From assembly GCA_964356135.1 (NCBI GenBank), contig CAYHGV010000001.1, forward strand, positions 8,179 through 72,178: DNA of 64,000 nucleotides, written 5' to 3'. Position 1 is the stretch's first letter; every line of letters starts with the position of its first letter. The notes beneath the pieces were generated by a model. The model saw only the letters and a program-made list of their open reading frames with translations, did no database searches and was not told the origin of the DNA. Below are positions 69 through 22,122 of the stretch, one piece after another. The position numbers and the translations under genes are program-made. Source of the stretch: an uncultured bacterium (GTDB lineage: Bacteria; Hydrothermota; Tepidihabitantia; CAYHGV01).

Positions 69-911
69 ATGATCGACAGACAGAGCAGAGGAGCCGTGAA
101 TCCCTACGAACCGAAGCAGGCGAAACTGCTGACAGTGATTGACGAGACCCCGACGATTAAAACCTTCGGATTAGAGGTTCGGCCGCCGATTGAATTTGAA
201 GCGGGTCAGTTTATTGAACTGACCGTGCCCGGCGTCGGTGAAGCGCCCTTTACCCCTTCATCTTCGCCGTCCGACCGGGATAAACTCGAAGTTACGATCA
301 TGAAGGTCGGCCAGGTTACTTCGAAGTTATTTGAATTAAAACCGGGTGCTTCGTTGGGGATCCGGGGACCGTACGGTAAGCGCTATCCGCTTGAAAAATT
401 CGAGGGCAAAGAGATTCTGATTGTCGGTGGAGGAGTGGGGCTGGCACCGTTACGAGCGCTTTTTTTTGCGTTGATCGCCGAGCCACTGCGGTATAGTAAA
501 ATCGTCGTTCGCTACGGTGCCCGGACGCCGAAGGATATTCTCTTTAAACCGGAGCTGGTCCGGTGGCGAGAACTGGCAGGAGTCGATTTTTTACAGACGG
601 TGGATGTGGCGGATGAGTCCTGGGCGGGAAAGGTGGGAGTGGTGACGACGATTCTCGATGCGGTTCCGATCAAGTCCCTGAACAATAGCGTCGCGGTGGT
701 GTGCGGCCCACCGTTGATGATGAAGTTCGTGACCGAGCGGTTATTAGCGATCGGGTTTCGAGGTTCCAATATTTATTTGTCGATGGAAAAAAACATGTCG
801 TGCGGTGCAGGAAAGTGCGGTCACTGCCGGATGGGAAGTCTGTTTCTCTGTGAAGACGGGCCGGTGGTGACCTGGGATGACGTGAAAGAGATTGAGGACC
901 CGTTCTTATGA
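69..911 (+). CDS. Hydrogenase gamma-subunit-like FAD/NAD(P)-binding oxidoreductase with a C-terminal 2Fe-2S site (HydG/AsrB/PyrK family). The frame is open back to the window edge (ORF track starts at 15), so the true start may lie upstream.
   Basis: Read by eye, it resembles P. furiosus sulfhydrogenase gamma: NPYxP...TFxL near the N-terminus, GIRGPYG, and a C-terminal CGAGKCGHCRMGSLFLCEDGP cysteine cluster. The stop overlaps the first unit of a 14-bp tandem repeat. Confidence 0.7.
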   Translation: MIDRQSRGAVNPYEPKQAKLLTVIDETPTIKTFGLEVRPPIEFEAGQFIELTVPGVGEAPFTPSSSPSDRDKLEVTIMKVGQVTSKLFELKPGASLGIRGPYGKRYPLEKFEGKEILIVGGGVGLAPLRALFFALIAEPLRYSKIVVRYGARTPKDILFKPELVRWRELAGVDFLQTVDVADESWAGKVGVVTTILDAVPIKSLNNSVAVVCGPPLMMKFVTERLLAIGFRGSNIYLSMEKNMSCGAGKCGHCRMGSLFLCEDGPVVTWDDVKEIEDPFL

Positions 912-961
912 AGGTGCCCTTATGAAGGTGCCCTTATGAAGGTGCCCTTATGAAGGTTGCA
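906..961 (+). repeat. 14-bp tandem repeat TTATGAAGGTGCCC: three perfect copies plus one diverged copy. It spans the hydG-like stop codon and the fdhA-like start codon.
   Basis: Direct reading: units at 906-919, 920-933 and 934-947, with a diverged unit at 948-961. Each unit carries an AAGGTG Shine-Dalgarno-like hexamer and an ATG, placed so that the AAGGTG of one unit sits 5 nt upstream of the ATG of the next. Confidence 0.85.
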
Positions 962-2584
962 CCGACGACCTGTCCGTTCTGTCTCTACGGCTGCGAACTG
1001 GGAATCGCCATCGACCAGGGTGCGATCAAAGGGGTTGAGTACCGCAAAGATTCAGAGATAAATCAGGGCCGGCTCTGCGCCCGCGGTAACGGCGCAGCCT
1101 GGCTGTTAGACCATCCCCGGCGGCTGACCGAGCCAATTATTGAAGGACGGAGGACCGATTGGCTGCGGGCGTGGACCGAGATCGAGAAAATTCTCAAAGC
1201 GACCAGGGTGCAGGAGATAGCCGTTACCCTCGATAAAAATCTGACTCAGGAAGAGGCGAGTGTGATTGCAGGATTTGCCCAGGCGTTCGGGATTGAAACC
1301 GTCGGCTCGAGTTATTTAGAACCGGAAGGTTATTTCCAGTATCGGCTGCCAGGGGTCAGATCCGCTCAATTGACTGACATCCGGGAGGCAGACCTTTTTA
1401 TTCTCATCGGCGATGTCCTGAACCAGATGCCGGTGCTGGCAAAGCCGGTGCTCGATGCCCGGTATCGGGAGCGGCAGCACCGGATCGTGGTGATCGATTC
1501 AATTCACACCCGGACCGGTTTTTTTGCAGACCGGTTCATCCGGGTCGAACCCGGCTCCGAGCCGTTGTTGCTGTTAGGGGTTTACGAGCGAGTTCAGGGA
1601 AAGCCCGCGCCGGCGACCGGCGATAAGATTGCCCAGGCATCGGGAGTCCCGATCGAGCAGATCGAAGGACTGTCAGCGATGGTGAATCAAGCCCGGCGGG
1701 TGGTGGTTGCTGCGGGAACGACGCTGGGCAGGGTAGAAATGCCGTTTCTCTTCGCTTTGGCGCCCCAGCTGCTTGCCTCAGTAGCTCCGGGCAAGATTAC
1801 ATTTTTAGCAGCTGGCGAAGCGCGGTGCCTGGTTAGCGGTAAAGGATTCGGGGAGATTATGTCGTTAGTAAAAAACAGAAAGATCAAGGTCCTCTGGAAT
1901 TTTGGCGAATCGTTTCCCTTTGATTATCCCCAGCTGGACCCGATATTGAAAAAATTGGATATGCTGATAACGACCGCAACCTTCATTCCGGGGAAAAAAG
2001 GTGGGGCATTGATTCTACCGGTACCATCCAACCTTGAGAAGACCGGTACGATTCCGACGTTGTGGGGGGAGGGCAGGCTGACCCAGCCGGTGGTGCCGCC
2101 CAGTGGCGTAAAGTCGATCGGCGAGATCCTGAACCAGACCGCTTCCCGGTTGGGCATCGGTTTCAGCCCCCGAGCGACTGAAATGAGCCGGCTGGTTGCG
2201 CCGGACGAGGTCTTGAGGGTTGCGGAGGATTATTTAGATGAACGGTTGAAGCCGAAACGGAGACGAACCTATCCATTTATTCTGGTCGGAGAAAAACCGG
2301 CAATAGAATTTCAGGGATTTTTTGTCGATTCGAAAAATCGGTTGAAGCTGAATCCGGTTGATTGCACCGCTTTAAATCTGAGAACCAGCGAGACGGTAGT
2401 GGTCGATACCGCGGAGGGGACGGAAGAATTCATTGTCGAGCGTTCGCCATCGGTGCCCCGAGCGGTCGTCGCTTGTTCGGTAAACCGGCGAGAGAACCGG
2501 CGGTTATTTGAGCCCGTGATTGACAAGACAACCGGCGATTGTATAATTCCATTCGCCCTTGCTAAGGTATGGAAAAAAATCTGA
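950..2584 (+). CDS. Molybdopterin-oxidoreductase family protein, formate dehydrogenase H (FdhF)-like. It has the N-terminal 4Fe-4S motif but no Cys or Sec at the catalytic position.
   Basis: N-terminal CPFCLYGCEL...C motif (CxxCxxxC...C). The middle domains align to E. coli FdhF by eye (e.g. HRIVVIDSIHTRTG against KIIVCDPRKIETA). There is no Cys and no in-frame TGA between residues 44 and about 290. The protein is 544 aa against about 715 for FdhF. Confidence 0.75.
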   Translation: MKVAPTTCPFCLYGCELGIAIDQGAIKGVEYRKDSEINQGRLCARGNGAAWLLDHPRRLTEPIIEGRRTDWLRAWTEIEKILKATRVQEIAVTLDKNLTQEEASVIAGFAQAFGIETVGSSYLEPEGYFQYRLPGVRSAQLTDIREADLFILIGDVLNQMPVLAKPVLDARYRERQHRIVVIDSIHTRTGFFADRFIRVEPGSEPLLLLGVYERVQGKPAPATGDKIAQASGVPIEQIEGLSAMVNQARRVVVAAGTTLGRVEMPFLFALAPQLLASVAPGKITFLAAGEARCLVSGKGFGEIMSLVKNRKIKVLWNFGESFPFDYPQLDPILKKLDMLITTATFIPGKKGGALILPVPSNLEKTGTIPTLWGEGRLTQPVVPPSGVKSIGEILNQTASRLGIGFSPRATEMSRLVAPDEVLRVAEDYLDERLKPKRRRTYPFILVGEKPAIEFQGFFVDSKNRLKLNPVDCTALNLRTSETVVVDTAEGTEEFIVERSPSVPRAVVACSVNRRENRRLFEPVIDKTTGDCIIPFALAKVWKKI

Positions 2585-3036
2585 TCGTCGATCTCGACTA
2601 CTGCATCGGCTGCCAATCCTGCGAGGCAGCATGTCGGGCTGCGTTTAAAGGTGAGGCGAGAATCCGCTACGGCTGGGTACGGCAGAGCGCATTGATACCT
2701 GCGCCCTGCCGGCACTGCGCAGACCCGCTGTGTGCGAAAGCCTGTCCCGAATCGGCAATGGTAAGAGACGAAACGACCGGTTTCGTCTATCGCCGGAGCT
2801 TTCTCTGTATCGGATGCCATTCTTGTATCTATGCCTGTCCGTTCGGGGTCTTAGAGCCGACGCTGGTGCGGCACGTGGTCATGAAGTGTGACTACTGTAA
2901 AGACCGGCACGAGGGTCCGCGCTGTGCCGCGAGCTGTCCTTCGGGTGCGCTTTCGTTCGTAGCGGCAGAGGAAACTGTCAAGTCACGGGTCGGCGCCCGC
3001 TCTATTTCGCATTCGTCCTTCTGGCGGAGGACCTGA
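2569..3036 (+). CDS. 4Fe-4S ferredoxin-type electron-transfer subunit, like HycB/HyfA/FdhB. It has four CxxCxxCxxxCP-type motifs.
   Basis: The motifs are CIGCQSCEAAC, CRHCADPLCAKACP, CIGCHSCIYACP and CDYCKDRHEGPRCAASCP. The gene overlaps the upstream gene by 16 nt. Confidence 0.8.
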   Translation: MEKNLIVDLDYCIGCQSCEAACRAAFKGEARIRYGWVRQSALIPAPCRHCADPLCAKACPESAMVRDETTGFVYRRSFLCIGCHSCIYACPFGVLEPTLVRHVVMKCDYCKDRHEGPRCAASCPSGALSFVAAEETVKSRVGARSISHSSFWRRT

Positions 3037-3127
3037 TAATGAATCACGGAGGGTCAAGGCGATTGACATGGAGTGACACGGACGAGTGTGCACGGTGGAC
3101 AGTGAACTTTTCATGTGGGGATTCCCG

Positions 3128-4051
3128 ATGGTAGGTTCGGTACTAAAAATACTCTTCTCCTTCCTTATTTTCCCGGGATTTTTATTCGCCGCGATTGTCG
3201 GGTTCTTCTTAACCTGGTTCGACCGGATGGTTTCCGCCCGCATCCAGTGGCGGGTCGGGCCGCCCTGGTTTCAGCCGTTTGCCGATTTTTTCAAGCTGCT
3301 CTTGAAAGAATCGACGATACCGGACGGAGTACCCCGGGTCATTTTTCTCGGTGCACCGATACTCAGTCTTACCGGCATTACGATAGCGGCGGCAATGCTC
3401 GGGTTTATGAATCTCTATCCCCGGAGTTCATTTATCGGGGATCTGGTCGTGGTGGTCTATTTTTTAGCTTTTGTTCCCTTAGGGATAGTTATCGGTGGTT
3501 CAGCTTCCAAGAATCCGTTAGGAGTGGTGGGGGCAATACGGGAGATGAATCTCTATTTCGCCTATGAACTGCCGTTACTGATCTGCGTCGTTCTGGCGAT
3601 AATCAAGACGCACAGCCTCAAAATCGGAGAGATGATTCTCTACCAGCAGGCGCACGGTCCGGTGCTGTATTCAGTATCGGGCGCAATCGCATTCGTTGTT
3701 GTGCTGATAGCGACCCAGGCGAAGCTGGGCTATGCGCCGTTCGATATTCCCGAGGCCGAGCAGGAGATTATGGCCGGACCGTATATTGAGTATTCGGGGG
3801 TGGCGCTGGCGCTGTATAAGCTTACCCGGGCAATCACTTTTTTTGTGATGCCGGTGTTGATGATCACTATTTTCTGGGGCGGCGTGCGCGACCTCTGGGC
3901 AATTCCAAAATTTATTCTCATTGTAGTTCTGGTCATTCTCATAAAAAATACCAATCCTCGACTGCGAATCGACCAGGCACTGAAATTCTTCTGGTTCGGT
4001 TTAGGAACGGCTTCCGCGGTCGGTATGATCCTGGCGTTAACCGGACTATGA
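3128..4051 (+). CDS. Membrane subunit of the NuoH/HycD/MbhM family. The ORF track begins at 3086; the ATG at 3128, which has a GGGGA hexamer upstream, is the more likely start.
   Basis: The protein is polytopic and hydrophobic, with RIQWRVGPPWFQPFADFFKLLLKE, which is the NuoH signature R.GP..G..QP.AD..K. The downstream gene overlaps it by 4 nt. Confidence 0.75.
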   Translation: MVGSVLKILFSFLIFPGFLFAAIVGFFLTWFDRMVSARIQWRVGPPWFQPFADFFKLLLKESTIPDGVPRVIFLGAPILSLTGITIAAAMLGFMNLYPRSSFIGDLVVVVYFLAFVPLGIVIGGSASKNPLGVVGAIREMNLYFAYELPLLICVVLAIIKTHSLKIGEMILYQQAHGPVLYSVSGAIAFVVVLIATQAKLGYAPFDIPEAEQEIMAGPYIEYSGVALALYKLTRAITFFVMPVLMITIFWGGVRDLWAIPKFILIVVLVILIKNTNPRLRIDQALKFFWFGLGTASAVGMILALTGL

Positions 4052-4464
4052 GAGACATCCGACGCTGGGGTTTGAAAAAGTCGCCCTGGGTTTTCCATGT
4101 TTCGGTCAGCTCGTGCAACAACTGCGACATCGAAATTCTCGACGCGCTCACCCCTCGTTTCGACCCGGAACGATTGGGGGTGGTGCTGGTCGGTTCACCC
4201 CGGCATGCGGACGTGCTGTTGGTCACCGGTGTTGTCAATCGGATGTGTGTCGACCGACTGCTGCGGGTTTATACCGAAACGGCAAAACCCTGTCTGGTCG
4301 TTGGGGTTGGAACCTGTGCCTGCGGTATCGGGATTTTCCAGGACGGCTACAATACCGCCGGGCCGTTAGACCGGCATATCCCGGTTGATGTCTACATTCC
4401 GGGCTGTCCCCCAAAACCGGAGGCGATTATTTTAGGGATTGCCAAACTGCTCGCAAAGATATGA
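4048..4464 (+). CDS. [NiFe] hydrogenase small subunit of the NuoB/HycG/MbhJ type, carrying the proximal 4Fe-4S cluster.
   Basis: CNNCDIE...GTCACGIG...CPP(K)P cysteine pattern typical of NuoB-like small subunits; 138 aa. Confidence 0.85.
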   Translation: MRDIRRWGLKKSPWVFHVSVSSCNNCDIEILDALTPRFDPERLGVVLVGSPRHADVLLVTGVVNRMCVDRLLRVYTETAKPCLVVGVGTCACGIGIFQDGYNTAGPLDRHIPVDVYIPGCPPKPEAIILGIAKLLAKI

Positions 4465-4913
4465 TTGTCGAAGAAATCAAACTGCGGTTTCCCGATTTTG
4501 AACTGCATGAGCACGCTGCCCGGCGGCTCTACCTCACCGTTCCCCGGGAACGGCTGGGCGAAGTCGGGCGCTTCCTGTTTCTGGAAAAAGGAGCGCGGCT
4601 CTCGACTGCGACCGGCACCGATACCCGGGCAGGTTTTGAGCTGCTCTACCATTTCTCCTTAGATACCGAGGGGACGTTTGTTTCGGTGCGAACGGTCGTT
4701 CCAAAAGACGATCCGAATGTTGAGTCCCTGGCGAGCTTTATGCCGGCGGCAAACTGGATTGAGCGTGAGATCTTCGACCTCGTCGGCGTGGTTTTTTTGG
4801 GCCATCCGAATCTGAAGCGGCTGCTTTCCGCAGAGGATGTGCCGGAAGACCACCGGCCATTGCGGAGGGATTTTGATGGGAATGACGATAAGATTAAACC
4901 ACCGAGAACATAG
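4461..4913 (+). CDS. NuoC/HycE N-terminal-domain-like subunit (the 30-kDa subunit). Here it is a separate gene rather than fused to the large subunit.
   Basis: NWIEREIFDLVGVVFLGHPNLKRLL matches the NuoC signature ExExxDxxGxxFxGHP. Confidence 0.8.
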   Translation: MIVEEIKLRFPDFELHEHAARRLYLTVPRERLGEVGRFLFLEKGARLSTATGTDTRAGFELLYHFSLDTEGTFVSVRTVVPKDDPNVESLASFMPAANWIEREIFDLVGVVFLGHPNLKRLLSAEDVPEDHRPLRRDFDGNDDKIKPPRT

Positions 4914-5077: not shown

Positions 5078-6268
5078 ATGGAAGTTAGTCGCAGAATCGT
5101 TCCGATCGGACCGTTCCATCCGCTCCAGGAGGAGCCGGAATTTTTCAAGCTGATAGTCGAAGGCGAAAAGGTGGTCGGGCTCGAAATTACTATCGGCTAC
5201 AACCACCGCGGCCATGAGCTGTTATGCCAGAATCGGACCTACGAACAGATTCCCTACGTGGTCGAACGGATCTGCGGGATATGTTCGAACTCCCATCCGT
5301 TGGCGTATGTGCTGGCGGTAGAAGATCTGGCAAAGATTGAGGTGCCGGTCCGTGCCCATTATATCCGAACGGTCATTGATGAGCTCCAGCGTATCCACTC
5401 CCATCTCTTATGGTTGGGTCTGGCCGGACACTTCATCGGCTACAATACGGTCTGGATGTGGTCCTGGCGCTACCGCGAGGATGTGCTCGACATTTTTGAA
5501 CTCATCACCGGTAATCGTCAGAATTATGCGATGAATAAGATCGGTGGTGTGCGCCGGGATATAGTGGAAGAGGATATTCCCAGGATTCATACGATGCTTG
5601 GCGGTCTCGAAGGGAAAATAAAAAGTTTCATCGGGATGGTTCTGGACGACCCGGTTATCCGGGCACGGTTAGAACGGGTTTGCATCCTGACGAAAGAGCA
5701 AGCCCGAGGTTACGGCGTGTTAGGACCGATCGCCCGGGCTTCGGGGATTGCGATTGATGTGCGCCGGGACGACCCCTATGCCGCTTCGGATTGGGTGAAG
5801 TGGGATATGGTGGTTTACAGCGAAGGCGATATTCTGGCGAAGGCAAAGGTCAGGCTGGTCGAGTGTTTGGAGTCAGTGAGAATTGTCAGGCAGTGCCTGG
5901 ACCGGATGGAAGAGGGGCCGATTGAAACGATGGTCACTGAGATCCCGCCGGGCGAAGGTATCGGCCGGGTTGAGGCGCCGCGCGGCGAAGTCTTTCATTA
6001 TGTACGCTCGGACGGTAGCAATATGCCCAGCCGTCATAAGATTCGGGCTCCGAGTTTCATGAATGTTCCTTCCAATGAAGTGGCGGTAGTCGGCTATTCG
6101 ATTGCCGATGCCGCGCTCTGCCTGGCCGCGGTCGACCCCTGCTACTGCTGTACCGAACGGCTGGCGGCATTTGAAAACGGGAACAAGAGATTCAGCTTTC
6201 AGGAGCTGATTAAGCTTTCCTGGGAAAAAACCGAGGAACTTAAAACTAAATTTAGGATATGCAAATAA
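5078..6268 (+). CDS. Group-4 [NiFe] hydrogenase large (catalytic) subunit, HycE/EchE/MbhL-like, with a C-terminal extension of about 35 aa.
   Basis: The N-terminal Ni-binding motif RICGICSNSH is present. The C-terminal motif is DPCYCCTER (DPCxxCxxR). The protein is 396 aa, and the tail after the C-terminal motif implies maturation by a HycI-type protease. Confidence 0.9.
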   Translation: MEVSRRIVPIGPFHPLQEEPEFFKLIVEGEKVVGLEITIGYNHRGHELLCQNRTYEQIPYVVERICGICSNSHPLAYVLAVEDLAKIEVPVRAHYIRTVIDELQRIHSHLLWLGLAGHFIGYNTVWMWSWRYREDVLDIFELITGNRQNYAMNKIGGVRRDIVEEDIPRIHTMLGGLEGKIKSFIGMVLDDPVIRARLERVCILTKEQARGYGVLGPIARASGIAIDVRRDDPYAASDWVKWDMVVYSEGDILAKAKVRLVECLESVRIVRQCLDRMEEGPIETMVTEIPPGEGIGRVEAPRGEVFHYVRSDGSNMPSRHKIRAPSFMNVPSNEVAVVGYSIADAALCLAAVDPCYCCTERLAAFENGNKRFSFQELIKLSWEKTEELKTKFRICK

Positions 6269-6397
6269 TACTAATGACAATGCTACGCGAAGCGTCCGTT
6301 GTTACTCGAAGAGTAGATGCGAGAGCATCACACAGCGAAACGAATGATTCGAATATTACAATATTATTATTCGCTATCATTCGGGTCATTCGCTCAA

Positions 6398-7822
6398 ATG
6401 GATAGACTGCTGGTGCTGCTGATCCTGGTGCCGATTGGCGCCGGGGTGCTGACTCCGCTTTTCGGTAGAATCCATCGGGTCGGCCGGGAAGTATGGGCGC
6501 TCTTGGTGAGCGGTAGCGCGTTCGGACTTTCGATACTGTTGCTGCGCACGGTTTTGATCGGTAAACCGTTATGGGCGTGGCGGCTTCCGGTGATGAGCGT
6601 TCTGCCGGCACCGCTCATGTATATCGACCGGGTGGGCGTATTTTTAGCCGTTCTTTTCAGTTTCGTTTTCTTTTTGACCACGCTCTACTCGACCGGTTAT
6701 CTTAAGGGTTATCCCCACCAGAGCGAGTATTATGGACTGCTCCTGGTTCTGCTGGGCGCGGTCACCGGTATTGTCTTTTCTGCCCATCTTTTGATGCTCT
6801 ATCTTTTTTGGGAACTGGCGACGCTGGGCACCTGGCGGCTGGTTGGATTCTATCGCAACCCCAATGAGATCCGGATTGCGGAAAAGATGTTTCTCTTGAC
6901 TTTTTTCGGGTCGGTTTTGATGCTGTGCGGGTTTGGGGCGTTGTATGTCAAATACCAGACGTTTAACATTTTTGACCTGTCCGGACTGCCGATCGATAGC
7001 TGGGTAGCGTTCTTAATATTAGCCGGAATTTTTGTCAAATCCGCCAGCCTGCCTCTCCATACCTGGCTGGCAGACGCCCATCCCGCCGCACCGTCGCCGA
7101 TGAGCGCGCTACTCTCGGGGATTATCGCCAAGATTGGGTTGGTCGCCTATATCCGAATCTTCATCCAGGGTGTTACGCCCCCTCCTTTTTGGGGCGGGAC
7201 GGTTGCGGCATTGGCAGTTGCCAGCGCAGTCGTGGCAGCGGGCTGTGCGTTGGTCGAAAAAGATTATAAACGGATTCTCGCCTTTTCGACCGTGAGCCAG
7301 TTGGGGTATATCTTTATCGGTTTCAGCCTGGCGACCTACTGGGGGGTGGTGGGCGGGCTGCTCTATCTGGCATCGCATTGCCTGGCAAAAGCCGGGTTGT
7401 TTCTGGCGTTCGGCATTGTCGAGCGGCAAACCCATGAGCGCAATGTCGATCAGCTGGGAGGACTTGTCCATACCTTGCCGGTCACCGGGATTTCGACGTT
7501 TATCCTCGCGTTATCGATAATCGGTATTCCACCGTTGTTTGGATTTTTCAGTAAAGTTGTGGTCGTGATAGCGGCGGCACAAAAGAGCATCATCGTTACC
7601 GCCGGTTTGGTGCTGGTAGCGATTTTCACCCTGCTCTACTTTATTAGAATTTTCAGCAAGGTTTTTTTAGGCCACCCCAAAGGGCGGACGACGGTGCGGG
7701 AGCCGGTGCTCCTGACCAGTGTGGTGGTGGTGCTGGCGGCGGTTTCGCTCGTGTTCGGGCTGGGGATCGGCTATCTGGTCGGTTTCTTTAACCAGGGTCA
7801 GGCGATATGCTCAATGTTCTAA
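6398..7822 (+). CDS. Antiporter-like membrane subunit (NuoN/MrpD/HyfB family). The ORF track begins at 6317; the start at MDRLLVLL (6398) is the more likely one.
   Basis: HTWLADAHPAAPSPMSALLSG motif typical of NuoL/M/N and MrpA/D; polytopic membrane protein. Confidence 0.75.
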   Translation: MDRLLVLLILVPIGAGVLTPLFGRIHRVGREVWALLVSGSAFGLSILLLRTVLIGKPLWAWRLPVMSVLPAPLMYIDRVGVFLAVLFSFVFFLTTLYSTGYLKGYPHQSEYYGLLLVLLGAVTGIVFSAHLLMLYLFWELATLGTWRLVGFYRNPNEIRIAEKMFLLTFFGSVLMLCGFGALYVKYQTFNIFDLSGLPIDSWVAFLILAGIFVKSASLPLHTWLADAHPAAPSPMSALLSGIIAKIGLVAYIRIFIQGVTPPPFWGGTVAALAVASAVVAAGCALVEKDYKRILAFSTVSQLGYIFIGFSLATYWGVVGGLLYLASHCLAKAGLFLAFGIVERQTHERNVDQLGGLVHTLPVTGISTFILALSIIGIPPLFGFFSKVVVVIAAAQKSIIVTAGLVLVAIFTLLYFIRIFSKVFLGHPKGRTTVREPVLLTSVVVVLAAVSLVFGLGIGYLVGFFNQGQAICSMF

Positions 7823-9708
7823 CCTTACCGATTCTGATTCCGACCGCGGCCGCGCTGTTGGGTTTTCTGATCAAGCGGCTGCGGAACGAGTTCGGGTTTG
7901 TCGGCGCTTTATTTACCCTCTACTATGCGGTCCGGCTCTTTTTGGTTTCCCGCTCGGCTACCCTCAGCTACGAGATTGTCCGCATCAAATCCCTCTCCTT
8001 CAGTCTGTTTGTCGATGGGTTCTCGGGTTTGATCATTCTCGCCTGTTCGTTCTTTGGTCTGTTGGTTCTCCTCTATTCATTCCGGTCGATGCGCATCTAT
8101 GCCCGGCTCAAAGGCTATTACGCCTATCTGCTGCTCACCCTTGCCTGCGCCAACGGTGTTAGCCTGGCGCACGATCTTCTGCTGTTACTCTTTTTCTGGG
8201 GGTTCCTCCTGGCACTGCTCTACGGGCTGCTCTCGATCGGCAAGGGTGAAACCGGTGATGCCGCGAATAAGGCGTTTACGGTCATCGGCATTTCCGATTT
8301 TCTTCTGCTCTTTGGCATTGCTCTGCTCGTGGCAAAGACCGGCAAAGCCGATATTGTCCTCGAATCGAAACTGGTGTTCACCGATCCCGTGCTTGTTGCC
8401 AGTTACATTCTGTTAGCCCTCGGGTGTTTCGGTAAAGCCGGGGCATATCCTTTCCATACCTGGATTCCGGAAGCGGCAAAAGTTGCGCCGGCAACAACGA
8501 TGGCGTTCATCCCGGCGAGCCTCGATAAACTGTTGGGGATCTATCTCCTGGCTCGGGTGAGCTACTCGATTTTCGATCTTACCACATCGCTTGCCCTGCG
8601 AATCTTTTTATTGAGCGTCGGTGCGGTCACCATTCTGGCTCCGGTGCTGATGGCGCTGGTGCAGAAGGAAGCGATGCGGCTCTTATCGTTCCATGCAGTT
8701 TCGCAGGTGGGCTACATGATTTTAGGAATCGGCACCGGCACGCCGATCGGTATTGCCGGTGCGATTTTTCATATGCTCAACAATTCGATTTACAAGTGCA
8801 GTTTGTTTTTGACTGTCGGTTCGGTTGAAGACCGGGCCAAGACCACCGACCTGGATAAGCTCGGTGGTCTTGGCCGGCAGATGCCGATTACGCTCTTTTC
8901 TTTTATTATTGCGGCGTTCGCCATCTCCGGGGTTCCTCCCCTCAACGGGTTCTTTTCTAAGTGGATGGTCTATCAGGGGATTTTAGAAACGGCGAAAGAT
9001 GGTAATAAAATTTATCCGATATTTTTAATTGTTGCTCTGTTCGGCAGTGTCCTGACTCTGGCTTCATTTCTCAAGCTGCTTCATTCGCTTTTCTTAGGCG
9101 AGCGGCCGTCCGGGCTGGCACGGGTCCGGGAATCGGGTTTTGTGATGTGGATTGTTACGGTCCTATTGGCGGCGATATGTATCCTCTTTGGCGTTTGGGT
9201 GCGGGTGCCGCTTAACCTGTTCATTTACCCCGCCATCGGATTCATAAAACCCGCGTTTATCGGCTTCTGGTCGCCTTCATTAGCCACCGGCATTATCATT
9301 ATCGGAATTGTGCTCGGGCTCGTCATCTACCTTCTCGGGACGGCATGGAAACCGATGCGCCGTCACGTATTTACCGGTGGCGAGCTGCTCGCACCGGACG
9401 AGGGTCACATTACCGGTCCCCATTTTTATAGTCCGGTAAAGGAACTCTTCGCAAAAAGCTATGAGTTTGGGGAGGGTGGAGCCTTTGACTTTTACAACTA
9501 TTCTACCGGTATCATTCGGGCGGTCAGTATGGTTTTTTCGCGGTTGATTGACCGCGGGTTTGACCGATTCTACGAATTCCTCGCCCGGTTAGGAAATCTC
9601 TTCGGAAGCGCGCTTTCGTTCGTTCATTCCGGAGAATTGCCGACCTATTTAGGCTGGATCTTTTTAGGAATGGCGGTAATTTTGATCGTGCTCATGTTCG
9701 GCGGTTAG
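7807..9708 (+). CDS. MrpA/NuoL-like antiporter subunit with a C-terminal extension.
   Basis: 633 aa, highly hydrophobic, with an HTWIPEAAKVAP...LGGL core. It overlaps the upstream gene by 16 nt. Confidence 0.75.
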   Translation: MLNVLTLPILIPTAAALLGFLIKRLRNEFGFVGALFTLYYAVRLFLVSRSATLSYEIVRIKSLSFSLFVDGFSGLIILACSFFGLLVLLYSFRSMRIYARLKGYYAYLLLTLACANGVSLAHDLLLLLFFWGFLLALLYGLLSIGKGETGDAANKAFTVIGISDFLLLFGIALLVAKTGKADIVLESKLVFTDPVLVASYILLALGCFGKAGAYPFHTWIPEAAKVAPATTMAFIPASLDKLLGIYLLARVSYSIFDLTTSLALRIFLLSVGAVTILAPVLMALVQKEAMRLLSFHAVSQVGYMILGIGTGTPIGIAGAIFHMLNNSIYKCSLFLTVGSVEDRAKTTDLDKLGGLGRQMPITLFSFIIAAFAISGVPPLNGFFSKWMVYQGILETAKDGNKIYPIFLIVALFGSVLTLASFLKLLHSLFLGERPSGLARVRESGFVMWIVTVLLAAICILFGVWVRVPLNLFIYPAIGFIKPAFIGFWSPSLATGIIIIGIVLGLVIYLLGTAWKPMRRHVFTGGELLAPDEGHITGPHFYSPVKELFAKSYEFGEGGAFDFYNYSTGIIRAVSMVFSRLIDRGFDRFYEFLARLGNLFGSALSFVHSGELPTYLGWIFLGMAVILIVLMFGG

Positions 9709-9709
9709 G

Positions 9710-10234
9710 ATGCTGCTCTTTTCGCTCTTTCTGGTTTTTATAATTATTGCCGCGATCGTGGCAATCGAAATCAAAGACCTCCTGGCGGCGACGATTGCAG
9801 TGGGTGCCGTGGGCTTCGGGGTGGCGATTATGTTTATCCTCACCCAGGCTCCGGATCTGGCGATTGTCCAGATTGTCGTCGAGGTTTTAACCGTCATCGT
9901 CTTTGTCGCGGTTGTGCTGCAGACGACCCACGAGGATACGACCGTCGGGATGAATCGAGGAATGATATTCCCCCTCGTTTCCTATCTGGCGTTCGGTTTC
10001 GTTTTTATTACGCTTGTGCTCTATACGTTCAAAGAGCTTCCACGGTTTGGCGAGCCACTGATCAAGGTTGCACAGTTCTACATCGCTGAGGGTCTTGCGA
10101 AAACCGGCGCGGCGAATATCGTTGCGGCGGTGATTCTTGATTTTCGGGGTTATGATACCCTGGGCGAAGCAACGGTGCTGTTCACCGCAGTAATCGGAGT
10201 ACTAACTATATTAAGAAAGGTAGGACGAAAGTGA
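9710..10234 (+). CDS. MrpB/MnhB-related small membrane subunit (N-terminal domain type).
   Basis: A protein of 174 aa with 4-5 transmembrane helices, placed between the MrpA-like gene and the MnhB-domain gene. The assignment rests on position and hydrophobicity. Confidence 0.55.
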   Translation: MLLFSLFLVFIIIAAIVAIEIKDLLAATIAVGAVGFGVAIMFILTQAPDLAIVQIVVEVLTVIVFVAVVLQTTHEDTTVGMNRGMIFPLVSYLAFGFVFITLVLYTFKELPRFGEPLIKVAQFYIAEGLAKTGAANIVAAVILDFRGYDTLGEATVLFTAVIGVLTILRKVGRK

Positions 10235-10268: not shown

Positions 10269-10712
10269 TTGGCAGAAATGAGCGGAATGACCGTGATTGT
10301 TAAAACGATGGCGCGGATTACGAGCGGGCTGATTTTCCTCTTTGGCTGCTATATCGTGCTCCACGGCCACCTGACGCCGGGCGGAGGATTCGCGGGCGGG
10401 GTGATCATTGCTGCGAGTTTTGTTCTTTTGATATTAGCCTTCGGCAGCCGGGAATCGGGCGAGCGGCGTTCGTATACGGTCGCTTCAATTATGGAAAGTG
10501 TCGGCGGAATTCTCTTTTTAGCGATTGCCGTTTTGGGTTTGTTTGTCGGGAGCTGGTTCTTTTTGAATCTGTTGCCCCATGGCACGCCGTTACGCATCTG
10601 GAGTTCGGGGATTATTTTGCCCGCCAATATCGCGATCGGCATCAAGGTCGGCGCAGGCTTGGTTAGTATCTTTCTTGCGTTTGCCGCTACCAAACACGTC
10701 ACGAAGGAGTAG
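10269..10712 (+). CDS. MrpB/MnhB-domain subunit.
   Basis: LHGHLTPGGGFAGG matches the MnhB signature (GH..PGGGFQ.G). Confidence 0.7.
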   Translation: MAEMSGMTVIVKTMARITSGLIFLFGCYIVLHGHLTPGGGFAGGVIIAASFVLLILAFGSRESGERRSYTVASIMESVGGILFLAIAVLGLFVGSWFFLNLLPHGTPLRIWSSGIILPANIAIGIKVGAGLVSIFLAFAATKHVTKE

Positions 10713-10820: not shown

Positions 10821-11159
10821 ATGCTCTTCTTTGTTGCATGCATTGTGCTGTTTCTGATCGGTCTCTATGCGGTCATAACCAAGAAGAACCTGATCAAGAT
10901 TGCGATCGGGTTCTCGATTATGGAGTATGCGGTCAATCTGCTGTTTGCCCTGATCGGCTTCAAAAAAGGCGCAATCCCTCCGATTATAACCTCGCTCTCC
11001 GCACCGAAGAATTTTGTCGACCCTCTTCCCCAGGCACTGGTCCTGACCGCGATCGTCATCGGTTTGTGCACAACCGCACTGTTGCTTGCGATTGCCCTCC
11101 GGCTCTACCAGCGGTACAAGACATTCGATATCACCGAAATCAAAAAACTACGTGGCTGA
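10821..11159 (+). CDS. MrpC/NuoK-like small membrane subunit.
   Basis: 112 aa with 3 transmembrane helices. The reading is based on position within the Mrp gene order and on NuoK-like hydropathy. Confidence 0.7.
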   Translation: MLFFVACIVLFLIGLYAVITKKNLIKIAIGFSIMEYAVNLLFALIGFKKGAIPPIITSLSAPKNFVDPLPQALVLTAIVIGLCTTALLLAIALRLYQRYKTFDITEIKKLRG

Positions 11160-11326: not shown

Positions 11327-12823
11327 ATGTCTAATATCTTTCTTCCGCTTTTTATTGCGCTGCCGTTAGCCGGTGCGTTTCTCATTCCGCTCGTAGCCCG
11401 GCTGTGGCATGGGCTGGCCGATATTATCGCCAATCTCATCACCGCCGCCCTGGTCGGGCTCTCGATTTACGCGCTCACGGTCCTCGCCTATCAGCCGATG
11501 GTGGTCTATAAACTCGGCGGCTGGCCGCCGCCGATCGGCATCGTTATGGGTTTTGATGCCCTCTCCGGGCTGATGGTTGTAACGATTGCGGTTATCAGTT
11601 TTGCCGCGAGTCTGTTTTCGATTCGCTATCTCGATTCCTATACCGGGCGCTGGAAGTTCTATACTTTGTTCATGCTGATCATTGCCGGATTGAACGGAGT
11701 CGCCATTACCGGCGATATCTTTAATCTGTTCGTTTTTGTTGAGATTACTTCGGTCGCATCCTATGCCCTGGTTGCATTCGGCACCAGAGACGAGGAGCTC
11801 GAAGCCGGATTTAAGTACATGGTGATCAGTGAGGTTGGCGGTATGACCCTGTTGCTGGCGTTGGCGCTCATCTATGCCAAGGCATCAACCCTGAATATGG
11901 CAGACCTTGCCCGGATAATTAGCCTGCACGGCATGAGCCCGTTCTTCTGGTTTGTGCTTGGATTGTTGGTCATCACGTTCGCGATTAAAGCCGCGTTAGT
12001 GCCGTTCCACTCCTGGCTGCCTGATGCCCACCCCGCCGCACCGACGCCGGTGTCGGCGATTCTCTCCGGGGTTTATATCAAGGTTTTAGGAGTCTATGCC
12101 CTGAGCCGGATTGTTTTCAATGTTTTCGGGCTCCACCGTGCCAATGCTCCGGTCTTCTTCAATCTCCTTTTGATACTCGGGCTGGTTTCAATCGTCGTCG
12201 GGGCATTTCTGGCGTTATCCCAGAAGGATTATAAGCGATTGTTGGCGTATTCGAGCATCAGCCAGGTCGGTTACATTATCGTCGGGTTCGGGATTGGTAA
12301 CTACTGGGGGGTGTTGGGAGCCCTCTTCCATATTCTCGCCCATGCGTTGAACAAAAGCTTGTTGTTTTTGACTTCGGGTTCAGTCGACCGCGCACTGCGA
12401 ACGCGCGACCTGGACAAGATGGGTGGTCTGGAAAAGAAGATGCCCGTAACGGCATGGAGTTTTATTGTCGGTTCGACTTCGCTTGCCGGTTTACCGCCGC
12501 TGGTCGGATTCTTCTCCAAGCTGCTGATCGTGCTCGGAGCACTGGCGGCGAAGATGTATCTGGTGGCGGTGGCGGTGGTTCTGTTGAGTGTCGTCACCCT
12601 CGGCTATTTTCTGAAGATCATCAAACAGGCGTTCTTTGGTAAAGAGGCGACCGAGGGAGCGCACGAAGCGCCACTGGCGATGGCACTGCCGATGATTATG
12701 CTTGCGGTGCTGGCGGTTGCCTGCGGTCTCGGATATTTTTGGCTTACTAAATTCGTAGTCGGTCCAGCCGCCGATGCACTGTTACGGGGAATCGACTATG
12801 CACGACTCATCTTCGGTGGATAA
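11327..12823 (+). CDS. MrpD/NuoN-like antiporter subunit.
   Basis: HSWLPDAHPAAPTPVSAILSG motif; 498 aa, polytopic. Confidence 0.8.
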   Translation: MSNIFLPLFIALPLAGAFLIPLVARLWHGLADIIANLITAALVGLSIYALTVLAYQPMVVYKLGGWPPPIGIVMGFDALSGLMVVTIAVISFAASLFSIRYLDSYTGRWKFYTLFMLIIAGLNGVAITGDIFNLFVFVEITSVASYALVAFGTRDEELEAGFKYMVISEVGGMTLLLALALIYAKASTLNMADLARIISLHGMSPFFWFVLGLLVITFAIKAALVPFHSWLPDAHPAAPTPVSAILSGVYIKVLGVYALSRIVFNVFGLHRANAPVFFNLLLILGLVSIVVGAFLALSQKDYKRLLAYSSISQVGYIIVGFGIGNYWGVLGALFHILAHALNKSLLFLTSGSVDRALRTRDLDKMGGLEKKMPVTAWSFIVGSTSLAGLPPLVGFFSKLLIVLGALAAKMYLVAVAVVLLSVVTLGYFLKIIKQAFFGKEATEGAHEAPLAMALPMIMLAVLAVACGLGYFWLTKFVVGPAADALLRGIDYARLIFGG

Positions 12824-12943: not shown

Positions 12944-13426
12944 ATGATTATCGTCTACTTCATCTTCGGCTACGGTCTCTGGCTGCTGCTGACTTGGACG
13001 GTCTACTACCAGTCGCTCATCGCCGGTGTGCTGGTGACCGTTCTCGCGACCGTTGTTTTTGGCAATTACTTCACCGGCAGCCCGAAAAAATTCTTAGACC
13101 CGCGCCGCTATTTCTGGGTGCTGGTTTATATTCCGGTGTTTATCTACTACATGCTCCGGGCAAATCTCGATGTCGCATTCCGGGCGTTGCATCCCCAACG
13201 GCCGATACGTCCCGGGATTGTCAAAATTCGGACCACCCTCAAAACCGATCTGGCAAAGACCTTTTTGGCTAACTCCATCACCCTCACCCCGGGTACGATG
13301 ACGGTCGAGATTGACGGCGAGTATCTCTATATTCATTGGATTTTCGTCGAGACGACCGACATCGAAGAAGCGTCGAAGGTAATTGCCCGACCATTTGAAC
13401 CGTATCTCCGGAGAATATTCGAATGA
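12944..13426 (+). CDS. MrpE/MnhE-like subunit.
   Basis: SITLTPGTMTVEIDGEYLYIHW resembles the MnhE family, and the gene sits in the MrpE position. It overlaps mrpF by 4 nt. Confidence 0.65.
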   Translation: MIIVYFIFGYGLWLLLTWTVYYQSLIAGVLVTVLATVVFGNYFTGSPKKFLDPRRYFWVLVYIPVFIYYMLRANLDVAFRALHPQRPIRPGIVKIRTTLKTDLAKTFLANSITLTPGTMTVEIDGEYLYIHWIFVETTDIEEASKVIARPFEPYLRRIFE

Positions 13427-13677
13427 CCGGTTTAATGGTGGTCTTGGCGGTTGCGGCATTTCTCTGTTTGTACCGGATTTTCCAGGGGCCGACCATTTCC
13501 GACCGGTCAGTCGGAGTCGATATTATGGGGATTATTTTCGTCGGCATTACCGCGCTCACCGCCGTGATCTTTAACCTCTCCTATTTATTGGATTTAGCGA
13601 TTGCCCTGGCGATGCTCAGTTTTATCGGCGTTCTGGCACTCGCAAAATATTTGGAAAAGCGGAATTTAGATGATTAA
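13423..13677 (+). CDS. MrpF/MnhF-like subunit.
   Basis: 84-aa two-helix membrane protein in the MrpF position. Confidence 0.65.
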   Translation: MTGLMVVLAVAAFLCLYRIFQGPTISDRSVGVDIMGIIFVGITALTAVIFNLSYLLDLAIALAMLSFIGVLALAKYLEKRNLDD

Positions 13678-14023
13678 ATTCTTCGGCTGGTTTTTTATCT
13701 GGCTGGGTGTGTTTTTCGACCTCTTGGGCTGTATCGGCTTGGTCCGCTTCCCGGATGTCTATAACCGGCTCCAGGCAGCGACGAAATCCGTAACCCTGGG
13801 GACCTTAGGGATCATGTTCGGGATTTTTCTCCTGCATGGTTTCAGTCCGATGGGAATCAAGGCTCTGATCTGCGGTATGTTTATCCTGTTGACCGCGCCG
13901 GTTTCAGCGCACGCGTTAGCCCGGGGTTCGCTCATCTTCCGGTCGAAGATGTGGAAAGGTTCAACGGTCGATAGGTTCGGTGAAGATAAACTCGGCGGCC
14001 CGCAAATCGAGGATAAGGAATGA
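13670..14023 (+). CDS. MrpG/MnhG-like subunit.
   Basis: A 117-aa protein with LLGCIGLVRFPDVYNRLQAATKS..LG, which resembles the MnhG family. Confidence 0.7.
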   Translation: MIKFFGWFFIWLGVFFDLLGCIGLVRFPDVYNRLQAATKSVTLGTLGIMFGIFLLHGFSPMGIKALICGMFILLTAPVSAHALARGSLIFRSKMWKGSTVDRFGEDKLGGPQIEDKE

Positions 14024-14164: not shown

Positions 14165-14773
14165 ATGAAAAAACCTAAACTCCGTGAGTTAGCCGAAGCT
14201 CTGCGGGCGATCTTCACCGGTCCCTATACCCGGAAGTTTCCCAGGGAGCCTTCACCCGCATTCCCCCGCTATCGGGGAATAATCGCCTTTGATAAAGATA
14301 AGTGTCTTGGCTGCGGCGCATGCGTTGAGGTCTGCCCGGCTTTAGCCCGGGAAATGGTCGACGATAAAAAAAAGAAAATCAGGAGGAATATCCACTATCA
14401 GGACCGGTGCGTCTACTGCGGTCAGTGTGTCGCCTACTGCACCAATAAGTATGCCATCGTTCATACGCCGGAATACGATCTGGCAAATCTCGACCGCAGC
14501 CACTACGATAATTCTATCGAATTAGAGCTGGTGATGTGCGAGGTCTGCGGAGGGGTGATAACCACCCGGAATCACCTGCGCTGGATCGCCAACAAGGTCG
14601 GTGAACTGGCGTATGCCAATCCGACGTTGATGTTAATAAAATTGGGCGAGCTGGGTTTAGTCGAGGAAACTGTACCCCGAACCGAACCCGCGCCCTACCG
14701 TTCCGACACCCAGAGATTGCTCTGCCCCCGATGCCGCCGGGAGATTCATCTCACCGAGGTATGGGGGTATTGA
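14165..14773 (+). CDS. 2x[4Fe-4S] ferredoxin subunit (NuoI/HycF/MbhN-like).
   Basis: The motifs are CLGCGACVEVCP and CVYCGQCVAYC, with extra Cys pairs (CEVCGG, CPRCRRE). The protein ends EVWGY*, and the last codons are duplicated at 18598-18630. Confidence 0.75.
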   Translation: MKKPKLRELAEALRAIFTGPYTRKFPREPSPAFPRYRGIIAFDKDKCLGCGACVEVCPALAREMVDDKKKKIRRNIHYQDRCVYCGQCVAYCTNKYAIVHTPEYDLANLDRSHYDNSIELELVMCEVCGGVITTRNHLRWIANKVGELAYANPTLMLIKLGELGLVEETVPRTEPAPYRSDTQRLLCPRCRREIHLTEVWGY

Positions 14774-18836: not shown

Positions 18837-19616
18837 ATGTTACCTATGGAGGCTGAAGTAAAAGCTCCAAAAGAAGAAAAAGAAAACTGGTCAGAGCAAG
18901 AACTCGTTGTCGCCTTTAATTTGTACTGCAAGCTTCCTTTTGGTCAGTATCATAAACACAATAAAAAGGTAATTGAAATTGCTAAAATTCTTGGAAGAAC
19001 ACCGAGTGCGGTTGCGCTAAAATTATGTAATTTTGCAAGACTCGACCCGGTTCATCAAAAGCGTGGTATCAGGGGAATGAAACACGGGAGCAAACTTGAT
19101 GAGAAAATCTGGAATGAATTCAATCAAAACTGGGGTGGACTTTCATATCAGAGTGAAATTGCACTTGCCCAATTAAAAGGTCTTAAACATTACGGTTTGA
19201 TAAAAGACACGGAGAAGTTTCCCCCAGGTAAAGAAAAAGAAGCACTTGTTAAGGCGAGGATAAATCAGAATTTTTTTCGTGAGATGATATTGGCAGGTTA
19301 CAGAAATAGGTGCGCGATATGTTCTTTACCTGAAGTAAATTTATTAGTGGCTAGCCATATTATACCATGGTCTGAGAATGCGGATTTACGAATGAATCCA
19401 AGAAACGGAATTTGTATGTGTGTTTTACATGATAAAGCTTTCGATAAGGGTTTAATCACGATCAATGGTGATTATAAATTATTACTTTCGAAAATACTCA
19501 AAAGACTTTCTAAAGAACCAGCTATTCAAAGGGGATTCATTTTTTACGAGAGTTTTAAAATAAGACTACCTGATAAATTTATTGAATTCCATCGAAATGA
19601 GGTATTTATCGGATGA
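18837..19616 (+). CDS. HNH endonuclease-domain protein (restriction-enzyme-like HNH_2 type) with an N-terminal domain of unknown function.
   Basis: C-terminal RCAICSL...LVASHIIPWS...NGICMCVLHDKAFDKG (Cys pair plus the H-N-H core). Confidence 0.7.
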   Translation: MLPMEAEVKAPKEEKENWSEQELVVAFNLYCKLPFGQYHKHNKKVIEIAKILGRTPSAVALKLCNFARLDPVHQKRGIRGMKHGSKLDEKIWNEFNQNWGGLSYQSEIALAQLKGLKHYGLIKDTEKFPPGKEKEALVKARINQNFFREMILAGYRNRCAICSLPEVNLLVASHIIPWSENADLRMNPRNGICMCVLHDKAFDKGLITINGDYKLLLSKILKRLSKEPAIQRGFIFYESFKIRLPDKFIEFHRNEVFIG

Positions 19617-19763
19617 TAATCAGTACTTAACAATTCGATGCTGATTGAAGAGGAAGATATGAGGCAAGGTGGTCTTGACGAGATGTTGTTTTTAATTACA
19701 CTTATATCTAAGGAAACAAGTAATGAATTCCTATGCCTGTCGAAATGATTTCAAAGGATTATT

Positions 19764-20771: not shown

Positions 20772-20836
20772 AGGGAGCTTAGTAGGTGAGGGTGAAGAGT
20801 AAATGGATAATTTTGTGAATATTGAATTTAATAGGA

Positions 20837-22120: not shown

Positions 22121-22122
22121 TA

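Follow-up and report, generated by a model that had tools for sequence, protein, structure and literature searches.

Results

The MopB-like gene and its product

We analyzed a 64,000-nucleotide stretch of DNA from an uncultured bacterium (contig CAYHGV010000001.1 of assembly GCA_964356135.1, positions 8,179 to 72,178 of the forward strand), referred to here as the window, and we report on an operon at its start in which genes for a group 4 [NiFe] hydrogenase stand beside one for an iron–sulfur protein of the MopB (DMSO reductase) superfamily. The gene of this MopB-like protein, at 950–2584 on the plus strand, is preceded by one for a flavoprotein of the SHI-gamma/HydG/AsrB type (SHI, soluble hydrogenase I) and followed by genes for a HycB-like ferredoxin, the hydrogenase and an Mrp-type membrane arm (Table 1). 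An original prediction, made from the letters of the window, had called the protein an FdhF-like subunit with neither selenocysteine (Sec) nor Cys at its catalytic position and had proposed, by analogy to NuoG, that it transfers electrons without being a catalyst. With modest confidence, we regard it as the dead relic of a formate dehydrogenase (Fdh), retained as an iron–sulfur scaffold in a hydrogenase that is ion-coupled and linked to NAD(P)H, and not as part of a formate hydrogenlyase (FHL).

The reading frame is uninterrupted over 544 codons, and its sole in-frame stop is the terminal TGA. Cysteines lie at residues 8, 11, 15, 43, 293, 472, 509 and 531, with none at 44–292, and the predicted absence of any Cys or in-frame TGA between residue 44 and about residue 290 was thus correct. 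Cys8, 11, 15 and 43 form the N-terminal CxxCxxxC...C motif of a [4Fe-4S] site that had also been recognized (Pfam Molybdop_Fe4S4, E = 9e-12). The motif begins at residue 8, with no NuoG-type N-terminal domains ahead of it, and its four cysteines, together with Arg45 at the position of FdhF Lys44, are constant in all 45 family sequences that include the N terminus. Escherichia coli FdhF (NC_000913.3) has 715 residues, with UGA at codon 140, and the window protein is 171 residues shorter, close to the 170 or so that had been estimated. In an AlphaFold2 (AF2) model (pLDDT 92.4, pTM 0.92), the four-domain fold of the superfamily is present, with about 510 residues superposed on Fdh and Nap structures of full length. 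The protein retains all four MopB domains, and it is shorter through loop deletions and not through the loss of a domain.

The catalytic position

To find the residues at the positions of the molybdenum ligand and of the catalytic Arg and His, as had been proposed, the MopB-like protein and 35 relatives were aligned, and the resulting profile was compared with FdhF and with solved structures. Tyr122-Leu123-Glu124-Pro125 falls opposite Sec/Cys140-His141-Gly/Ala142-Pro143 when the partner is FdhF, M. hungatei FdhA (7bkb_D) or the HDCR FdhF (7qv7_S). When HHalign is used with a small profile of true Fdh sequences, a gap falls opposite Sec140 and Pro125 still lies opposite Pro143. Only with the F420-dependent Fdh 9t1s_L, where this Pro is missing, is the register off by two, with Glu124 opposite Sec. 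In no alignment register does the MopB-like protein have Cys, Sec or Asp followed by His at the ligand position, and in this respect the original prediction holds whichever register is chosen. In the AF2 model a strand spans residues 117–120 and a helix runs from Pro125 onward; thus, the ligand loop is about two residues shorter than that of FdhF.

The catalytic arginine of FdhF, Arg333, lies in the sequence P-V-R-G-Q-N-N-V-Q-G within the segment 318–413, which HMMER leaves unmatched and HHalign largely deletes, and there is no conserved Arg in the candidate columns 288–292 of the family alignment. When the family was aligned with hmmalign to a profile built from true Fdh and Nas sequences, only the N-terminal half was covered, and the motifs of domains II and IV were therefore compared in the pairwise output of HMMER and HHalign. 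As far as these alignments reach, they show that the MopB-like protein has lost both the Sec/Cys-His pair and the Arg333 loop.

The loop that takes the place of the ligand is not uniform within the family. Among 45 species-level sequences, position 120 is Cys in 33, Arg in 6, Ser in 4 and Ala in 2; position 121 is Gly in 30 and Ser in 13; position 122 is Tyr in 29 and His in 16; and position 124 is Glu in 42, His in 2 and Asp in 1. The same sequences are constant at the iron–sulfur cysteines, Arg45, G154-D155, D183 and E363. Since positions 120, 122 and 124 vary while the operon and the other family motifs persist, no single residue capable of acting as a ligand is required.

Residue 120, two before Tyr122, is Ser in the window protein, Cys in the 33 relatives mentioned above (C-G-H/Y-I-E-P-E) and Arg or Ala in other lineages. 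The loop reads C-G-H-I-E-P-E or C-G-Y-(I/L/V)-E-P-(D/E) in most WOR-3 species (loci L008–L045), S-S-Y-L-E-P-E in the lineage of the window and R-S-Y-L-E-P-E in others. In its Cys-Gly-His form the loop is reminiscent of a Cys-His pair with a spacer, and this form may be the sign of a sub-clade that has degenerated less. We considered Cys120 of the relatives as a displaced molybdenum ligand and judged it unlikely to be essential, in that the lineages with Arg, Ala or Ser keep the operon and the other family motifs.

Family membership

The best sequence matches of the MopB-like protein are formate dehydrogenases. On the Fdh-alpha model of NCBIfam (TIGR01591) it reaches 84.5 bits (cut-off 666), over residues 6–211 only, and on the NuoG model (TIGR01973) 56 bits (cut-off 470). 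Two further identities were rejected: FwdB/FmdB, the JGI label on the relative P0003 (TIGR03129, 27.9 bits against a cut-off of 327.8; no ligand Cys), and QrcB (a score of 44 against 440, with the iron–sulfur motif at residue 8 leaving no space for a Tat signal). The protein has the MopB fold and belongs to the type of group 4 cluster in which an Fdh-like protein accompanies SHI-beta and SHI-gamma; it is not a member of the FdhF, NuoG, FwdB or QrcB families.

These results bear directly on whether the complex is a genuine FHL, with an Fdh whose ligand has gone unrecognized or whose selenocysteine is recoded. The neighborhood of MopB, HycB-like, group 4 hydrogenase and Mrp genes does match that of Thermococcus-type FHL, and the formate dehydrogenases that head the sequence matches agree with it. 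Against it stand the missing Cys/Sec-His pair, the missing Arg333 loop and the low TIGR01591 score. Recoding of selenocysteine was rejected, as the reading frame has no internal UGA and its orthologues, of 520–570 residues, are colinear with it. As far as sequence can show, a genuine FHL is refuted and essentially excluded, and we give it hardly any credence; the earlier suspicion that the complex is not a true FHL is well supported.

Orthologues and gene order

In a family scan with one genome per species, we found about 45 species-level orthologues, nearly all labeled candidate division WOR-3, with one Latescibacterota and several given as "uncultured bacterium." The family is sharply bounded, with scores of at least 578 bits inside it and 124 bits for the next match. 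A comparison of orthologous clusters had been suggested, and it shows a strict synteny: the order beta-gamma-MopB-HycB-NuoH-NuoB-NuoC-NiFe large subunit-Mrp is kept in all 44 loci, as far as the contigs reach, with a full SHI-beta gene in 42 of them. The distant relatives P0039 and P0040, which also lack the ligand, adjoin SHI-beta/gamma and group 4 hydrogenase genes as well. The arrangement is that of the group 4 clusters associated with Fdh-like and SHI-beta/gamma proteins, in which an Fdh-like gene without Cys or Sec stands beside SHI-beta, SHI-gamma and CooF/HycB-like genes.

Within this conserved order, no subunit is less conserved than the MopB-like protein. Its median identity across the orthologous loci is 34%, compared with 62% for gamma, 55% for the HycB-like subunit, 67% for NuoB and 68% for the hydrogenase large subunit, and relative to the closest relative it is 65% identical where the other subunits are 72–94% identical. 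The two nickel–iron motifs, RxCGxCxxxH and DPCxxCxxR, are both kept in every orthologous locus that reaches the large-subunit gene, which shows the hydrogenase itself to be intact.

Signs of cofactor loss

We compared scores on two Pfam models, Molybdopterin and Molydop_binding. The MopB-like protein scores 29.3 bits on the first (cut-off 24) and 18.7 bits on the second (cut-off 26.8), below the cut-off in the latter case. The corresponding pairs are 337/96 bits for FdhF, 263/81 for the true Fdh P0050, 232/82 for P0040 and 135/42 for P0039, and at the low end 64/31 for the cofactor-free NuoG of E. coli, 58/45 for a NuoG-like protein elsewhere in the window and 29/19 for the MopB-like protein. 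Its match to Molydop_binding covers the core of the model only (30–77 of 110) and misses both ends, as do the matches of NuoG and P0039, whereas FdhF, P0040 and P0050 match this model end to end. The analogy to NuoG fits these results: the protein scores lower than E. coli NuoG on both models and is the least conserved subunit of its operon.

In a wider set of MopB-like proteins of 450–615 residues (exhaustive search, 191 representatives, E up to 1e-30), there is wide variation in the ligand loop, but the motifs G-D-x-F...P, I-D-S/P and L-E-K-x-G-T persist. From this search, P0082–P0199 are a large and diverse group of MopB-like proteins of 450–615 residues that match the family profile end to end and have no Cys-His ligand motif; they keep G-D-x-F...H/x-P, I-D-S/P and (L/F)-E-x-x-G-(T/S), an example being the "V-Y-L-P-P-x-D" group.

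The Pfam scores, the fast evolution of the subunit, the variable residues of its loop and the variability of that loop in the wider superfamily lean towards loss of the cofactor. The MopB-like protein most likely no longer binds the molybdenum or tungsten bis-pyranopterin guanine dinucleotide (Mo/W-bisPGD). We infer this loss from sequence, which alone cannot settle binding. Among the open reading frames scanned in the 64-kb window, there was no gene for molybdenum-cofactor biosynthesis and no hyp gene.

The remainder of the operon and of the window

The features of the window are collected in Table 1. As judged from the encoded proteins, the complex is a true [NiFe] hydrogenase with an FHL-like electron-input arm, an Fdh without an active site and a flavoprotein module directly upstream. 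It is an Mrp-linked, membrane-bound group 4 enzyme, with both nickel–iron motifs and with NuoB-, NuoC-, NuoH- and NuoI-like and Mrp subunits encoded in one operon.

Table 1. Features of the window discussed in the text
Feature	Position	Strand	Basis or remark
SHI-beta/AsrA-like (Fer4_22) iron–sulfur subunit, last 23 codons	1–72	+	Cut by the window edge
SHI-gamma/HydG/AsrB-like subunit binding FAD, NAD(P) and [2Fe-2S]; presumed NAD(P)H site	69–911	+	Pfam NAD_binding_1, FAD_binding_6, DHODB_Fe-S_bind
14-nt tandem repeat, 3.8 copies, at the gamma/MopB junction	905–957	+	TRF period 14, 100% match
MopB-fold, Fdh-derived protein, 544 residues	950–2584	+	N-terminal [4Fe-4S] site; no Sec/Cys-His or catalytic Arg loop
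HycB/CooF/FdnH-like ferredoxin	2569–3036	+	Pfam Fer4_11 1e-17; NCBIfam HydN and FDH-beta type matches
NuoH/MbhM-like membrane subunit	3086–4051	+	Pfam NADHdh 6.6e-68
NuoB/MbhJ-like hydrogenase small subunit, proximal [4Fe-4S]	4048–4464	+	Pfam Oxidored_q6 1.2e-25
NuoC/MbhK-like subunit	4461–4913	+	Pfam Complex1_30kDa 1.6e-28
[NiFe] hydrogenase large subunit, group 4	5078–6268	+	RICGICSNSH and DPCYCCTER
MrpA/MrpD (NuoL/M)-like antiporter subunit, first of two	6317–7822	+	Pfam Proton_antipo_M; NCBIfam matches
MrpA/MrpD (NuoL/M)-like antiporter subunit, second of two	7807–9708	+	Pfam Proton_antipo_M; NCBIfam matches
MbhD/E-like subunit	9710–10234	+	Pfam
MnhB	10269–10712	+	Pfam
NuoK/MrpC-like subunit	10821–11159	+	Pfam
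MrpD-like subunit	11327–12823	+	Pfam
MnhE	12944–13426	+	Pfam
MrpF	13423–13677	+	Pfam
MrpG	13670–14023	+	Pfam
NuoI/MbhN-like 2x[4Fe-4S] ferredoxin subunit	14165–14773	+	Pfam Fer4 families; last gene of the operon
Restriction-modification island	18837–22827	+	HNH endonuclease, N6/N4 DNA methylase, MjaI-family restriction endonuclease
Second redox cluster	29675–36607	+	
NuoE-like subunit	29675–30151	+	
NuoF-like subunit	30148–31959	+	Extra ferredoxin domains
NuoG/HydA-like protein, 723 residues	32095–34266	+	C-terminal MopB domain
NfnA/DHODB-type small subunit	34254–35078	+	
GltD/NfnB-like subunit	35168–36607	+	

The operon extends beyond the start of the window. Frame 1 at the window start reads SGCGRCIRGCTARIDIRKIIQAV up to its stop codon and matches the C terminus of the Fer4_22 protein encoded just upstream of the orthologous operon in L001, the closest orthologous locus. 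The next gene was the HydG-like module that had been named as a neighbor, and its product is indeed HydG/AsrB-like (NCBIfam AsrB 1.7e-63 and sulfhyd_HydG 5e-56, both under the equivalog cut-offs). The mechanical open reading frame for this gene runs from GTG 15 to 911 and encodes 298 residues; orthologues have 271–272, and therefore the gamma subunit likely starts at ATG 69, which overlaps the SHI-beta stop codon as ATGA. Between this gene and that of the MopB-like protein, the 14-nt repeat (unit CTTATGAAGGTGCC) spans the SHI-gamma stop codon to the MopB start codon and makes three mini-open reading frames (ATG AAG GTG CCC TTA TGA, MKVPL), each with its stop overlapping the next ATG, ahead of the start at 950. 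The repeat is absent from L001, and it could be the product of slippage, a device for translational coupling or attenuation, or an artefact of assembly.

Downstream, the HycB-like ferredoxin has 16 cysteines in four CxxCxxCxxxC-type motifs, and four [4Fe-4S] clusters are predicted for it. The solved chains closest to the hydrogenase large subunit are Pyrococcus furiosus MbhL (6cfw_L, 4e-82) and E. coli HycE (7z0s_E, 2e-73). This subunit continues for 35 residues past DPCYCCTER, and this extension suggests C-terminal processing of the HycI type, as in HycE; neither a maturation protease nor a hyp gene was among the open reading frames scanned in the window. The NuoI-like gene occupies the same position in L004, L005 and other loci.

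A few kilobases past the operon lies the restriction-modification island, and farther on there is the second redox cluster, which resembles electron-bifurcating transhydrogenases of the Stn/NfnABC type (matches to 8oh5_C, 9n5u_A and 7t2r_A). By eye, the C-terminal MopB domain of its 723-residue NuoG/HydA-like protein has no Cys-His motif, and the window would therefore encode two degenerate MopB proteins, each beside a pyridine-nucleotide module.

The hydrogenase genes and this second cluster also bear on a different account of the complex, that it is mainly a ferredoxin-dependent hydrogenase of the Mbh type. The beta/gamma-MopB-HycB arm would then be a second outlet through which reduced ferredoxin reduces either protons or NAD(P)+, making the complex a hybrid of an ion-pumping ferredoxin:NAD(P)+ oxidoreductase and a hydrogenase, with the MopB relic as a scaffold only. 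The closeness of the large subunit to the ferredoxin-dependent MbhL, the presence of a full Mrp/Mbh subunit set with an MbhN/NuoI-like subunit, and the active balancing of ferredoxin, NADH and NADPH suggested by the Nfn/Stn-like NuoEFG-GltD cluster are all consistent with this account. However, we identified neither a gene for ferredoxin nor a feature for its docking in the operon, and the four-cluster HycB-like subunit, to judge from the FHL structure, would extend the arm away from the ferredoxin docking site of the membrane-bound hydrogenase (MBH) (PMC9474812). We consider a mainly ferredoxin-dependent enzyme unlikely, although the present evidence accommodates either it or the NAD(P)H-linked enzyme.

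Discussion

Proposed role of the MopB-like protein

We propose that the MopB-like protein, which has lost the formate-oxidizing site while keeping the fold and the N-terminal [4Fe-4S] cluster, descended from the catalytic Fdh subunit of an Mrp-linked complex of the FHL type. The protein would then work as ElpA or the C-terminal domain of NuoG does and, together with the four-cluster HycB-like ferredoxin, would dock a beta/gamma flavoprotein module of the sulfhydrogenase type on the hydrogenase arm. Electrons would pass from NAD(P)H to the FAD and [2Fe-2S] cluster of gamma and on to the [4Fe-4S] clusters of beta, and from there, possibly by way of the MopB cluster, to the four clusters of the HycB-like subunit, those of the NuoI-like and NuoB-like subunits and finally the [NiFe] site. 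Through the membrane arm of the Mrp type, this flow would be coupled to the movement of H+ or Na+. An ion gradient could push the evolution of H2 from NAD(P)H at low H2 pressure, or the oxidation of H2 could reduce NAD(P)+ with ion pumping. The homology of the beta/gamma module suggests NAD(P)H as the physiological partner, and the path of electrons, the nucleotide preferred and the direction of the reaction are likewise proposals.

Several points weigh against this reading. With standard potentials of about −320 mV versus −414 mV, the evolution of H2 from NAD(P)H is energetically uphill; thus, an ion gradient may drive H2 evolution, or H2 oxidation may drive ion export. In the MopB-like family, G154-D155, D183, E363-K364 and G447 are invariant or nearly so, and they fall at the dinucleotide-binding positions of real enzymes. 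The Y/H122-x-E124-P125 loop is highly conserved, with Glu124-Pro125 near-invariant, and it could provide a metal ligand of a non-canonical kind instead of serving a structural role. Cys120-Gly-His/Tyr122, which is like a spaced Cys-His pair, occurs in most of the family but is absent from the window protein. Finally, related complexes have been modeled with a three-way branching of iron–sulfur clusters in which the Fdh-like protein is a terminus, and a third substrate has been proposed (PMC13582414).

Taken in the other direction, the retained dinucleotide motifs and the near-invariant Glu124-Pro125, with Tyr or His at position 122, favor a protein that is still an enzyme and that holds a pterin or other nucleotide cofactor through a non-canonical ligand (Glu124, Tyr/His122 or Ser/Cys120) and acts on a third substrate. 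The complex would then be a three-way membrane enzyme, possibly bifurcating or confurcating, that links H+/H2, NAD(P)+/NAD(P)H and that substrate; AlphaFold models of complexes from related clusters of group 4b have led to such a proposal (PMC13582414, section 16). The retention of four MopB domains, as opposed to the truncated ElpA, is consistent with an enzyme, and so is the case of P0040, a more conservative relative that has no Cys and yet scores highly on the Pfam models for cofactor binding. Against this, positions 120, 122 and 124 are each replaced in some lineages, the deletion has removed the Arg333 loop, and neither end of Molydop_binding is detectable, as in NuoG. The MopB-like protein also evolves about twice as fast as its neighbors, which is unusual for a catalytic metalloenzyme, and the ligand loop is highly variable across the wider superfamily. 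In addition, Glu, Tyr and His are not known as ligands in any enzyme of the MopB superfamily. On these grounds we think it improbable that the protein is still catalytic, and the interpretation in the original prediction, a non-catalytic subunit for electron transfer, has the best support. Less probable again, in our estimate, is the more specific proposal that Y/H122-x-E124-P125 and the dinucleotide motifs mark a pterin-type cofactor on a ligand new to the superfamily, with a third half-reaction in a three-way, ion-coupled hydrogenase.

Comparison with known systems

Methanothermobacter marburgensis offers an experimental precedent for an iron–sulfur scaffold without a cofactor: ElpA, a component of its Elp-Hdr complex (8rvu), is homologous to FdhA but does not bind molybdopterin, and it has a flavoprotein partner (PMC12350162). 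ElpA has 339 residues and is missing part of the MopB fold, whereas the window protein keeps four domains, and the partners of ElpA are an F420H2-oxidizing FrhB-type protein and Hdr rather than SHI-beta/gamma and a membrane hydrogenase. The C-terminal domain of NuoG/Nqo3, the classical precedent, is likewise a cofactor-free MopB fold from an Fdh-like ancestor, and it shares with the window protein low, truncated Pfam scores and a place next to an NAD(P)H-oxidizing flavoprotein module. When the two are superposed, the [4Fe-4S] cluster N7 of Nqo3 coincides with cluster A1 of FdhF (PMC9474812). However, NuoG has additional N-terminal 2Fe-2S (N1b) and 4Fe-4S (N4, N5) domains and NuoE/F (FMN) partners, whereas the window MopB stands alone and its flavoprotein is of the unrelated, FAD-containing SHI-gamma/AsrB type.

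With the FdhF-HycB pair of E. coli FHL (7z0s/7z0t), the window complex shares the fold and a one-cluster MopB protein with a four-cluster HycB-type ferredoxin (clusters B1–B4 in HycB) feeding a group 4 [NiFe] site (PMC9474812). FdhF oxidizes formate with Sec140-His141, Arg333 and a Mo-bisMGD cofactor, and the window protein has none of these three residues; unlike the WOR-3 complex, E. coli FHL has neither a beta/gamma flavoprotein nor an Mrp module. P. furiosus MBH (6cfw) is closest in its hydrogenase core and Mrp-type membrane arm, but it takes electrons directly from ferredoxin and has no MopB, HycB-like, beta or gamma subunits. The gamma subunit of P. furiosus SHI is homologous to the SHI-gamma/HydG protein of the window, and there the beta/gamma pair serves a soluble group 3b hydrogenase.

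The closest published counterparts are clusters of group 4b, in which Takano et al. (2026) found that about half of the Fdh subunits are without Cys or Sec and co-occur with SHI-beta/gamma homologues; the main text of their paper does not mention WOR-3 (PMC13582414). The window operon shares with these clusters a ligand-less, Fdh-like MopB protein, SHI-beta/gamma, ferredoxin-like and antiporter subunits and a group 4 [NiFe] hydrogenase. P0039 and P0040 show the layout of that paper, with the order MopB-beta-gamma, a fused NuoC-NuoD large subunit of the HycE type and a MopB protein of 640–700 residues, whereas the WOR-3 form has the order beta-gamma-MopB-HycB, separate NuoC and NuoD and a full Mrp set. 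In the WOR-3 form the MopB protein has 544 residues, 29 bits on Pfam Molybdopterin and a deleted Arg loop, compared with 135–232 bits in P0039 and P0040. It is for these relatives that the family search falls to 124 bits, from at least 578 bits within the family. A group 4 hydrogenase cluster in Saganbacteria RX5A was called "enigmatic" by Matheus Carnevali et al. (2019), who did not analyze active-site residues (PMC6349859); it is from a different phylum, and its likeness to the WOR-3 cluster is drawn from the published description. The architecture is thus already published, though experimentally unstudied, and the WOR-3 form is a more degenerate, WOR-3-specific member of it.

Significance

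Automatic annotation at present labels the cluster as formate hydrogenlyase, "anaerobic selenocysteine-containing dehydrogenase" or NADH dehydrogenase, and what the present analysis adds is a correction of this routine annotation and detailed arguments that the protein has degenerated in WOR-3 bacteria. The graded series, in which P0040 and P0039 stand between FdhF and the WOR-3 family, would represent natural intermediates between a molybdoenzyme and a scaffold. If the protein is an iron–sulfur scaffold, as we favor, the family would be an independent, present-day parallel to a proposed step in the origin of complex I, in which an FHL-type Fdh degenerated to a cofactor-free iron–sulfur scaffold while a pyridine-nucleotide-oxidizing flavoprotein was added to a hydrogenase; the relationship of FdhF to NuoG is discussed in PMC9474812. 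The flavoprotein here is of the AsrB/SHI-gamma type and not NuoF, and the parallel would therefore be convergent. WOR-3 bacteria would then have an NAD(P)H-linked, ion-translocating membrane hydrogenase, and models of their fermentative redox balance and H2 production would change.

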